In this document: piece after piece, positions 3 to 2,349 of the stretch
Layout of the letters: each line of letters begins with the position of its first letter
Numbering within the stretch: the stretch's first letter is position 1
NCBI GenBank assembly: GCA_016933055.1
Contig: JAFGBS010000009.1
Location: 690,001-722,000, forward strand
From: Promethearchaeota archaeon
GTDB lineage: Archaea > Asgardarchaeota > Lokiarchaeia > Sigyniarchaeales > Promethearchaeaceae
Direction: 5' to 3'
DNA: 32,000 bases
Position numbers and translations under genes: made by a program
Notes under the pieces: generated by a model
Databases searched by the model: none
What the model was told of the DNA's origin: nothing
What the model saw: the letters and a program-made list of their open reading frames with translations, nothing else

Positions 3-479
3 CAAAAAGCAACAAAAATCTTGAATCCATTTTCAAAAGGCACAACAGAAGACCAGAAAAATCGTTCTAAAGAAATCCTTGAAATAATTAATAATGTAGA
101 AAAACGTGCAGAACGAGTGACTAACTTAATGCGGGAATCGGGGTCTTTACGGCTAGTAACAATTCCAGAAAAACCAAGTTATGAAGAATTAAAACGAGCA
201 AGAGACCTCACAACATCGTATATTAATCTAGATGCAGTTCATATTAATCGAATTATCCATGAGAAATATCACCGATGTGAAATGTGCAGAAAAGTTCGTA
301 AGATCCAAAATAAATATATTCAAGCTATTGAGTCAGATTTTTCTAATATAATGATCTGGAAATCCCATATGCTTCTTGAAGAACCCATCGGATTAAATGG
401 ATTAAAAAAGCTAGGAAATGAAATTTTTGGTTCTATAATTGACGCACAATCAATTCTAAAACCAGAACCAACTCAGTGA
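3..479 (+). CDS. arsA: ArsA/GET3 (TRC40) family ATPase, C-terminal part, truncated by the window edge
   Basis: The frame is open from position 3. Motifs LRLVTIPEKPSYEE...VHINRII, CEMC (CxxC), R-K-Q-KYI and MLLEEPIGLNGLKK match the ArsA/Get3 C-terminus. The N-terminal P-loop lies outside the window. Confidence 0.85.
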   Translation, partial: QKATKILNPFSKGTTEDQKNRSKEILEIINNVEKRAERVTNLMRESGSLRLVTIPEKPSYEELKRARDLTTSYINLDAVHINRIIHEKYHRCEMCRKVRKIQNKYIQAIESDFSNIMIWKSHMLLEEPIGLNGLKKLGNEIFGSIIDAQSILKPEPTQ

Positions 480-632: not shown

Positions 633-974
633 ATGATAAAAATGACTCTATCTAAAGTTTTGGAATATCCCGAAGGAATTGATCAAGTAGCGTTTAATGC
701 GAGTGTATCTGATGGGAAAGTTCTAATCGATGTGTATACGGACTGGTGTGGGCCTTGTAAACGAGTAAAACCGATTTTTAAGGAATTATCCCAAGAATTC
801 CCTGATGTCAAATTTCTCTCTCTCGATCTAGATAACGCAAGATGGATTGGAGAGAGATTTGAAATCCATGCAATTCCTACCTTCCTGTTTTTCAAAGACG
901 GCCAAATGATCTATAAGCACCTCGGTGCGATGGGTAAAGATGGATTTATTCGATTGATCGAGGCTAAATTTTGA
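633..974 (+). CDS. trxA: Thioredoxin
   Basis: 113 aa with WCGPC active site and cis-Pro loop IPTFLFFKDG. Confidence 0.95.
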   Translation: MIKMTLSKVLEYPEGIDQVAFNASVSDGKVLIDVYTDWCGPCKRVKPIFKELSQEFPDVKFLSLDLDNARWIGERFEIHAIPTFLFFKDGQMIYKHLGAMGKDGFIRLIEAKF

Positions 975-975
975 A

Positions 976-2349
976 ATGTCAGAATTACATCAGGTACAAG
1001 AGTTTACCAAAGAAATTTCAGAAAAAGAGTTTAAATCCATATTAATAGATAATGATTTAGTTGTTGTTGACTGCTATGCCGATTGGTGCTCTCCTTGCTT
1101 GCAATTTAGACCGATATTTGAGAAACTTTCTAATGAATACACGAATATTAAGTTTATTTCAATAGACACTGATGGAACACAATGGATTGGGGAGAAATAT
1201 GACATAGATTCCATTCCCCGGTTCCTCTTTTTCAAAAATGCCCATTTAGTTTATGAGCATAAGGGTGCCTCACCGCTAGAGGTTTTTGAATATTTTATAA
1301 AAACTAAACTCCTAGGATTGCAGCTTTTAGATGAAATTAAAGAGGGTATTACCGAATCCGAATTTGAGGAACTCATAAAGGAATACGGGAAGCTAATAGT
1401 GGAGTTTCATCCCAGTGAGGACGATGAATCTGAACAACTGAAACCATTTTACATACCATTAATGGAAAATTATCCCGAAATAAAATTTCTTATAATAGAG
1501 TTAGATAGCAAGAAAACTCAATGGGCTCGAAAACGGTTCAATATAAAGGATCACTTTCCGTATTTCATAATATTTAACAATGGAGAAAATGTGTTATCTC
1601 ACCACATTCATCATCCAGAAGCGATAAAATACGCAATCGAGGAAAAATTATTAGGTAGAACACCCTTCACCCATGATTCACTTATGCCGGAGGAAAAATT
1701 TGACACCATAATCAATGCATATGAAAATGCTATTGTATTTATTATGAAAGAAGGCAGCAATACGAGTTCCACATTGCGGAATTATTTGTTCCACGTTGCT
1801 GAAAAATTTCCTGACCTCCCTATGGTTGCTTTAAAACTCGAAGAAAATCCCTGGTTAGTGGATAAATTCGGATTAGAAAAAGCTGAATTCACTCGATATG
1901 GAGAGGAAGGGAAAAAAATTCCATATTTCATATTTTATAAAAATAGTGAGATTGTTCATGAAACAGGACCAGTTGTTCCCACGCAATTTGAAGATACAAT
2001 TCAAGGAAAATTGTTAAAACTGTTTGCTGTCGATGAGTATGATCATGGATTAGAAGAAGGCAAATTTAATACAATTCTTGAAAATCCATTAGTAATAATG
2101 GATATATTCACAGTCTGGTGCCAACCTTGCATTGAAGTTAGGCCGATCTTCCGAAACCTTTCCAGAAAGTATTCAGAAATAAAGTTTCTATCCGTTGATT
2201 TGGATCATGCACGTTGGATAGGTGAAAAATTCGATATTGACTCCATTCCCTCTTTTCTATTCTTCAAGGATGGAGAAATGGTTCATAAACATGTAGGATT
2301 CTTAGAAGAGGACATGTTTGAGAAAAAAATCCAAGATAATTTAAAATAA
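976..2349 (+). CDS. Four-domain thioredoxin-fold protein (active WCSPC, two Cys-less domains, active WCQPC)
   Basis: Four ~110-aa repeats, each with the Trx strand/helix pattern and a cis-Pro motif (IPRF, FPYF, IPYF, IPSF). CxxC occurs only in domains 1 and 4. Starts 1 nt after the trxA stop. Confidence 0.9.
   Translation: MSELHQVQEFTKEISEKEFKSILIDNDLVVVDCYADWCSPCLQFRPIFEKLSNEYTNIKFISIDTDGTQWIGEKYDIDSIPRFLFFKNAHLVYEHKGASPLEVFEYFIKTKLLGLQLLDEIKEGITESEFEELIKEYGKLIVEFHPSEDDESEQLKPFYIPLMENYPEIKFLIIELDSKKTQWARKRFNIKDHFPYFIIFNNGENVLSHHIHHPEAIKYAIEEKLLGRTPFTHDSLMPEEKFDTIINAYENAIVFIMKEGSNTSSTLRNYLFHVAEKFPDLPMVALKLEENPWLVDKFGLEKAEFTRYGEEGKKIPYFIFYKNSEIVHETGPVVPTQFEDTIQGKLLKLFAVDEYDHGLEEGKFNTILENPLVIMDIFTVWCQPCIEVRPIFRNLSRKYSEIKFLSVDLDHARWIGEKFDIDSIPSFLFFKDGEMVHKHVGFLEEDMFEKKIQDNLK

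Follow-up and report, generated by a model that had tools for sequence, protein, structure and literature searches.

On its forward strand, a 32,000-nucleotide stretch of a Promethearchaeota archaeon genome (assembly GCA_016933055.1, contig JAFGBS010000009.1, positions 690,001 to 722,000; hereafter the window) carries at positions 976..2349 a gene for a protein of four thioredoxin (Trx) folds, of which the outer two are redox-active and the inner two have lost their active-site cysteines. The same order of domains, a-b-b'-a', is found in eukaryotic protein disulfide isomerase (PDI). The protein is probably a lineage-restricted, soluble and cytosolic multi-module thioredoxin, which was built by duplication of the thioredoxin of its own locus and converged on the PDI layout rather than sharing it by common inheritance. 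We observed the fold, the motifs, their conservation, a signature residue of the locus, a narrow distribution and a gene linkage, and we infer from them that the protein most likely reduces disulfides with its outer modules and binds with its inner ones, as well as its most likely clients. The four-Trx architecture is real and conserved, and apparently undescribed, as we found no description of such a protein in the literature on Asgard PDI and thioredoxin, on archaeal Get3 with thioredoxin or on PDI in eukaryogenesis.

Architecture of the four-thioredoxin protein

The open reading frame (ORF) of the gene (P0001; 976..2349, + strand) is open throughout its 457 codons, and the protein of 457 amino acids (aa) is supported by Pfam matches, an AlphaFold2 model and full-length orthologues. 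The model, predicted from an alignment with 15 relatives, has a mean predicted local distance difference test score (pLDDT) of 90.9 and a predicted template modelling score (pTM) of 0.71, and consists of four complete beta-alpha-beta-alpha-beta-alpha-beta-beta-alpha units, each of which is closed by a K-L-L-G/K motif. Pfam matches, motif positions and the model agree on the active-inactive-inactive-active order. Thus, the original prediction, which had read four Trx folds in the a-b-b'-a' layout with CxxC confined to domains 1 and 4, proved correct. The protein contains five cysteines in total (C33, C38, C41, C382 and C385), which form a CxxC motif at two places, C38-C41 (WCSPC) and C382-C385 (WCQPC), and nowhere else.

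All four modules are encoded contiguously on the + strand. Module 1 (residues 1-113; 976..1314), module 2 (residues 114-228; 1315..1659) and module 4 (residues 349-457; 2020..2349) exceeded the gathering cut-off of PF00085 (23.5 bits) with scores of 81.5 (E 5e-23), 27.8 (E 2.5e-6) and 63.6 bits (E 1.8e-17), respectively. Module 3 (residues 229-348; 1660..2019) was recognised by the family profile and by structure; as a single sequence, it gave solely a sub-threshold match to PF13848 (Thioredoxin_6; 16.5-16.9 bits, cut-off 27 bits; E 0.006-0.008).

The WCxPC dithiol, the buried Asp and the cis-Pro of thioredoxins are all present in modules 1 and 4. In module 1, WCSPC (nt 1087-1098) is accompanied by Asp32, cis-Pro81 and an extra conserved cysteine, Cys33, and the residues D32, W37, C38, P40, C41 and P81 are invariant in the family; in module 4, WCQPC lies at nt 2119-2130. 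Both are structurally close to classical thioredoxins (module 1, Z 18.8 to the E. coli and Thermus proteins; module 4, Z 19.3 and root-mean-square deviation (rmsd) 1.4 Å to A. fulgidus Trx3). The middle modules retain the cis-Pro alone. The position of CxxC is occupied by an acidic DDES in module 2 and by SNTS in module 3, and profile alignments to thioredoxins place P194 and P316, both invariant across the family, at the cis-Pro, in line with the earlier suggestion that domains 2 and 3 had lost both cysteines and kept the cis-Pro loop. Module 3 has further invariant residues in the family alignment (W293, K314, Y317 and G331) and a conserved insertion of ~12 residues (~nt 1876-1914), which appears as a 12-residue gap in the profile alignment to thioredoxins. 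The insertion directly precedes the cis-Pro strand (K-K-x-P-Y-F), beside the former active-site surface.

The protein is acidic and soluble. Its N-terminus is hydrophilic and its highest 19-residue Kyte-Doolittle mean is 1.14; with no hydrophobic segment by this measure, the protein has neither a signal peptide, as had been predicted, nor a membrane anchor. The C-terminus reads ...QDNLK, and the endoplasmic reticulum (ER) retention signal KDEL is absent from it.

Two features of individual modules are recorded separately. Cys33 (window positions 1072-1074) directly follows the buried Asp in V-D-C-[FY]-A-x-W-C and is retained by at least 90% of the family, in three- and four-module forms alike. 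Module 2 bears a cluster of histidines (residues 145, 193 and 209-213, in EFHP, FP[HY]F and H-I-H-H-P), which occurs in all nine close four-module orthologues and not in distant relatives. Judging from thioredoxin topology, these residues would lie in three loops lining the thioredoxin active site, and the cluster may be a metal site.

Cysteine-less modules are closest to classical thioredoxins

A different reading of the a-b-b'-a' order, within an Asgard genome, is that the protein is an orthologue or direct precursor of eukaryotic PDI, derived from the Asgard ancestor of eukaryotes. We regard this reading as highly improbable, and the nature of the middle modules is one of the grounds, as their nearest relatives in both sequence and structure are classical thioredoxins. 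In searches of Protein Data Bank (PDB) sequences, the family profile of module 2 matched classical thioredoxins best (yeast Trx3, E 1e-11), and that of module 3 matched S. solfataricus TrxA2 and a thioredoxin reconstructed for the archaeal ancestor (E 1.5e-8 to ~2e-8). Ten of the 13 module-2 sequences matched PF00085 and none of the 13 matched PF13848, the family of the PDI b and b' domains. The weak PF13848 match of module 3 in the window protein speaks for PDI ancestry; nevertheless, it is below the cut-off, and a match to PF13848 of any kind, again below the cut-off, was detected in only two of the 18 module-3 relatives.

Modules 2 and 3 were also modelled separately (pLDDT 91.5, pTM 0.80), and this model was searched exhaustively against 48,161 solved chains. 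The nearest structures were classical thioredoxins (Z 15.2-15.7, rmsd 1.7-2.0 Å, ~104 residues), namely yeast Trx3 for module 2 (Z 15.7, rmsd 1.7 Å) and A. fulgidus Trx3 for module 3 (Z 15.2), and no single PDI b or b' domain was found among the top 50 structural matches. A Foldseek search with the same two modules returned PDILT, ERp72 a0a, PDO, QSOX1, AhpF and ERp57 bb' at template modelling (TM) scores of 0.32-0.48 and does not discriminate.

Synonymous sites between the window gene and three orthologues are saturated (pS ~0.8), and, as this saturation holds even within the genus, dN/dS is not computable and the proportion of nonsynonymous differences (pN) is reported instead. Against the three orthologues, pN was 0.17-0.25 for module 1, 0.22-0.24 for module 2, 0.18-0.21 for module 3 and 0.15-0.17 for module 4. 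The values are similar in all modules, and the constraint on the cysteine-less modules is therefore as tight as that on the active ones. Because they change as slowly as the active modules, modules 2 and 3 are probably functional.

Probable origin of the modules by local duplication

Sequence comparison within the protein gave identities of 47% between modules 1 and 4, 30% between 2 and 4, 26% between 3 and 4, and 22.5% between 2 and 3. Immediately upstream lies a gene for a single-domain thioredoxin of 113 aa (P0002, WCGPC; 633..974, + strand; PF00085 E 5.3e-23), whose product is 49% identical to module 4 and 41% to module 1, while module 2 is 28-30% identical to module 4 or to this single Trx; the likeness of domain 4 to this neighbour had already been pointed out. 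Judged by its sequence, the single Trx is a paralogue of modules 1 and 4.

The modules and the single Trx share a tryptophan at the start of helix 3 (W70, W184, W293 and W414 in the four modules). Of 40 family domains, 37 have this residue, against one of the 30 other rows and not one of the 18 domains from the PDI family. It is also absent from the other canonical thioredoxin of the same genome (149 aa, WCGPC), and thus the tryptophan marks the locus and not the organism. That other thioredoxin (L033:133-582; G000:C17:288432-288881) carries a charged N-terminal extension of ~40 residues and is probably the housekeeping one.

We reconstructed a maximum-likelihood tree of 70 domains over 111 columns, in which PDI was sampled thinly; its b/b' domains are represented by one b and one b' of an ERp72-like protein, with boundaries set after human ERp72, the search of representatives having yielded mostly PDIs with several active sites. 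Module 2 and module 3 each formed a clade (support 99/97 and 96/90, respectively), and the two clades were sisters (99/93). PDI a-type domains formed a clade of their own, and ERp72 b and b' did not join modules 2 and 3. In approximately unbiased (AU) tests, uniting all family domains in one clade was not rejected (p 0.23), and placing modules 1 and 4 with PDI a cost 29 log-likelihood units and was disfavoured (p 0.02). In the per-domain phylogeny, which the original prediction had proposed, affiliation with PDI is thus disfavoured for modules 1 and 4; for modules 2 and 3, a clade with ERp72 b/b' was not rejected (p 0.29).

Taken with the module identities, the shared tryptophan and the K-L-L-G/K ending of every module, the tree and the AU result for a single clade (p 0.23) bear out the earlier suggestion of local duplication, and the evidence favours serial duplication of the locus's own thioredoxin as the process that built the four-module protein.

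Several points weigh against this reading and are gathered here. First, that a clade joining ERp72 b/b' to modules 2 and 3 was not rejected also speaks for PDI ancestry. This outcome reflects the very long b/b' branches and the thin sampling, and a very deep link of modules 2 and 3 to PDI b/b' is still formally compatible with the tree. Second, the backbone of the tree is unresolved, and the pairing of modules 2 and 3 as sisters could be exaggerated by long-branch attraction. Third, the nearest multi-domain shapes in whole-protein fold searches are eukaryotic PDI-family proteins only. Foldseek with the whole model placed PDILT, PDI, ERp57 and ERdj5 at the top (E ~1e-20), which is what the ancestry reading would expect, and the nearest shapes in the ESM Atlas, which are themselves predicted models, all belonged to eukaryotic clusters of the PDI family (TM 0.32-0.50), with no prokaryotic cluster among them; predicted models of PDIA3, PDIA7 and ERdj5 gave TM 0.39-0.50. 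Fourth, the middle residue of CxPC varies among orthologues (G/S/H in module 1; Q/M/A/T/S in module 4), and the redox properties may accordingly differ from those of classical thioredoxin.

As for the third point, rigid superposition on solved PDI, ERp57 and PDILT structures gave TM of only 0.20-0.25 and rmsd of 17-19 Å, with about one domain superposed. Rigid alignment of the whole model to the PDB recovered single thioredoxins for modules 4 and 1 only and is uninformative on the multi-domain arrangement. The likeness to PDI appears to come from the string of four Trx folds, and the twisted-U arrangement was not reproduced in the model, a comparison that is limited by the flexibility of multi-domain predictions and of PDI itself.

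Relatives, module variants and distribution

A word-indexed search found eight full-length four-module orthologues (455-461 aa, 65-67% identity) and a set of three-module relatives (340-355 aa, 35-41% identity by BLAST; 35-46% to the window protein with the a-b-b' and a-b'-b' variants included). The named relatives carry one label, 'thioredoxin family protein' of Promethearchaeota archaeon, which fits the Asgard origin of the window. At E up to 1e-30, an exhaustive search of 1.84 billion representatives yielded 11 proteins, and some six of them are clusters of the family proper. They include a distant four-module form (P0022, 34%), an a-b-b' form (P0016), an a-b'-a form (P0021), an a-b'-b' form (P0019) and P0023, perhaps a truncated call, with its start within module 2. 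Every family member seen has a module 3 with the invariant W, K-K-x-P-Y-F and the insertion.

The three-module forms lack module 2 or module 4, or have module 3 in duplicate. The a-b'-a forms are P0013-P0017 and P0021, with P0016 listed separately as a-b-b'. Modules have also been shuffled inside the family, as seen in P0019 (L020:3096-4163), in which the module-3-type insertion is duplicated, and in P0016 (L021:1370-2425). We considered whether the fourth module of P0016 had been split off downstream and ruled this out; the next ORF, of 55 aa, has no Trx-like frame, and a-b-b' is therefore a true three-module form.

With the module-3 profile, the four-Trx protein was detected in four of 400 sampled genomes of the phylum, belonging to three genera, all in the window's own taxonomic family. 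It occurred in three of 13 other species of that family and in none of 135 in the largest sister family. The survey scored the top candidates per genome, and many of the genomes are 65-90% complete. PF13848 gave weak half-model matches across the 400 genomes (at most 33 bits), none of them full-length and none in the window's family. The Asgard-wide survey, by which an origin of PDI in this lineage was to be judged, thus found the protein in one family only, and the distribution is too narrow for a source of eukaryotic PDI.

These results, together with the tryptophan signature, the classical-thioredoxin-like inactive modules and the AU test for modules 1 and 4, lend no support to the suggestion that the protein is a model of PDI's origin in the Asgard lineage, when taken as ancestry or orthology. 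The lack of a signal peptide, of KDEL and of CGHC is likewise at odds with a PDI precursor, as is the bacterial source inferred for the thioredoxin domains of the ER PDI family by Schaffer, Iyer and Aravind (PMC7016017).

We also noted proteins of ~355 aa in another Asgard family, f31 (genomes G330 and G335; L029:1294-2367 and L031:1287-2345, both on the - strand). Besides an unassigned N-terminal domain of ~130 aa, they have an active Trx (WCQPC or WCQMC) and a Trx-like domain that lacks Cys and weakly matches PF13848, and they look like an independent tandem of an active and an inactive Trx.

Genomic neighbourhood and the Get3/ArsA-like ATPase

Just one base separates the stop codon of the single-Trx gene from the start codon (ATG) of the four-module gene, and the two genes are probably co-transcribed, judging from this spacing. 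In L001, L002 and L004, too, the multi-Trx gene has a single-Trx gene as its neighbour. Upstream of both, the window contains the 3' part of a Get3/ArsA-like ATPase gene (3..479, + strand; full gene L024:1397-2479, 360 aa; PF02374 E 4.9e-20). The ATPase has the P-loop GGKGGVGKSS and a C-x-M-C motif, which is invariant in seven orthologues. The order in the family locus is Get3/ArsA-like ATPase, single Trx and multi-Trx, followed by an S-adenosylhomocysteine hydrolase gene on the other strand, an AsnC-type regulator gene and an ArcS/TGT-like gene; in L004, which belongs to the three-module clade, the order of the single and multi-Trx genes is swapped.

The ATPase gene adjoins the multi-Trx gene in seven of eight loci, and the neighbouring ATPases are orthologous (56-83% identity). 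Such linkage, with the invariant C-x-M-C, raises the idea that the multi-Trx protein and the single Trx form a dedicated redox partner of the ATPase, in which they would keep or reset its CxxC, or handle its clients, as a redox-switched chaperone or targeting module; yeast Get3 turns into a holdase when its cysteines are oxidised. The adjacency persists in L022, where downstream synteny is lost, and in L020, where the two genes are convergent and the flanks unrelated. Most loci, however, are broadly syntenic, so that the adjacency may be inherited rather than selected; moreover, 154 nt separate the ATPase gene from the Trx genes in the window, and no ATPase gene was found near the distant four-module relative P0022. 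We therefore consider a dedicated partnership rather unlikely. Prediction of a complex between the ATPase and the four-Trx protein scored 0.00 against a mark of 0.32, which counts neither for nor against binding.

Downstream, 17 nt after the stop of the four-Trx gene, lies a gene for a protein of 171 aa (P0003; 2367..2882, + strand) with a predicted SRPBCC/CoxG/START-like fold. It has no Pfam match and resembles CoxG/SRPBCC clusters in the ESM Atlas (TM 0.78). An orthologue of 72% identity occurs in L002 and none in L001, where unrelated genes take its place, so that P0003 is a clade-specific neighbour. Elsewhere in the genome (G000:C11:42463-43347), a gene for a thioredoxin reductase (TrxR)-like flavoprotein was found, full-length and with 316 bits just under the curated cut-off of 343. 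The two metatranscriptomes of the source study contained next to none of the sequence words of the four-Trx gene.

Putative function and evolutionary scenario

In the scenario that we favour, the thioredoxin of the locus would have been duplicated serially to give a multi-module protein, and modules 2 and 3 would have lost both cysteines and stayed well-folded thioredoxin domains. Modules 1 and 4 most likely reduce disulfides of client proteins and would be recycled, most likely, by the TrxR-like flavoprotein of the genome. Modules 2 and 3 would then most likely serve as a rigid spacer and as a platform for binding clients or partners between the two active sites, as the b and b' domains do in PDI. 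The foremost candidate for a client is the neighbouring Get3-like ATPase, which bears a CxxC.

It has to be asked whether the protein is a functional analogue of PDI, that is, a cytosolic isomerase, foldase or holdase, in which modules 2 and 3 bind unfolded clients and the terminal sites shuffle disulfides. Such an analogue would account for the order of active and inactive folds, which is the same as in PDI, for the conservation of the inactive modules and of the new loop that module 3 carries, and for the nearest multi-domain shapes being all of the PDI family. The active sites point elsewhere. Proline at the second variable position of CxxC is the mark of a low-potential reductase, and both sites are CxPC, not CGHC or CPHC; the reductase-type motifs, noted at the outset, are thus confirmed. 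No oxidising partner was seen, and none was looked for, and the poor superposition on solved PDI, ERp57 and PDILT does not help the analogy. On balance, we judge a functional analogue improbable. A convergent cytosolic PDI-like protein, after the earlier suggestion of a foldase, is possible as far as architecture goes, with CxPC arguing for a reductase.

It is attractive to speculate further that the protein is an independent prokaryotic, cytosolic counterpart of PDI, with two reductase-type heads on a client-binding pair of dead Trx folds, which, in concert with the single Trx and the neighbouring Get3-like ATPase, would act as a redox-switched chaperone or as a module that handles tail-anchored proteins. 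We hold this fuller picture to be quite unlikely.

Under the favoured reading, that of a locally duplicated, convergent multi-module thioredoxin, the protein seems to have arrived independently at the PDI blueprint, in which active Trx heads are set around Cys-less folds. The evolutionary steps are still legible, as a single Trx, three-module forms and four-module forms occur at a common syntenic locus, with dead modules that can still be recognised as thioredoxins; the system is therefore a tractable natural model of how catalytic domains turn into binding domains. The case also warns against taking an a-b-b'-a' protein of Asgard archaea as a eukaryotic signature protein. Finally, the conserved pairing with a Get3-like ATPase, which has a CxxC of eukaryotic type, points to a redox connection with protein targeting or chaperoning that is open to test.

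Comparison with known systems

Among eukaryotic proteins, plant nucleoredoxin NRX1 is cytosolic or nuclear and has three modules, with active Trx-like modules around a degenerate one, of the tryparedoxin-like branch (PF13905). We saw no specific similarity to it; module 1 scored 81 bits with PF00085 and 32 with PF13905.

PDO (P. furiosus 1a8l) is, like the four-Trx protein, prokaryotic, cytosolic and made of tandem Trx folds, and it was matched to modules 2-3 by Foldseek (E 7e-10). It has two units (~225 aa), each with CxxC, whereas in the four-Trx protein CxxC is confined to the outer two of the four units; the TM of modules 2-3 to 1a8l is 0.32, and they have no specific sequence affinity to PDO.

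Eukaryotic PDI (PDIA1/Pdi1p) likewise consists of four Trx folds of ~110-120 residues with CxxC in the outer two only, and its middle folds are likewise Cys-less and conserved. Nevertheless, the four-Trx protein fails most of the defining features of PDI: (i) the active sites of PDI are CGHC, whereas those of the four-Trx protein are WCSPC and WCQPC (WC[GSH]PC and WC[QMATS]PC among orthologues); (ii) the protein is cytosolic, lacking, besides the signal peptide and KDEL, the x-linker and the acidic tail; (iii) the middle domains of PDI are b/b' domains of PF13848, whereas those of the four-Trx protein are recognisable classical thioredoxins (PF00085, Z 15); and (iv) the modules bear the locus-specific tryptophan, which PDI-family domains lack, and the protein is restricted to one archaeal family.

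The a-b'-a and a-b-b' relatives, by comparison, share the syntenic locus, the ATPase neighbour, the module-3 signature and the tryptophan, and a-b'-b' P0019 stands beside the same ATPase in rearranged surroundings. The fold common to every module is that of classical thioredoxin (TrxA; S. solfataricus TrxA2, 3hhv; A. fulgidus Trx3, 4xhm), whose WCxPC, buried Asp and cis-Pro recur in modules 1 and 4. Unlike classical thioredoxin, the four modules are fused, two are without cysteines, and module 3 has gained its insertion of ~12 residues; even so, single-domain thioredoxins are the best matches of all four modules, both in sequence and in structure.

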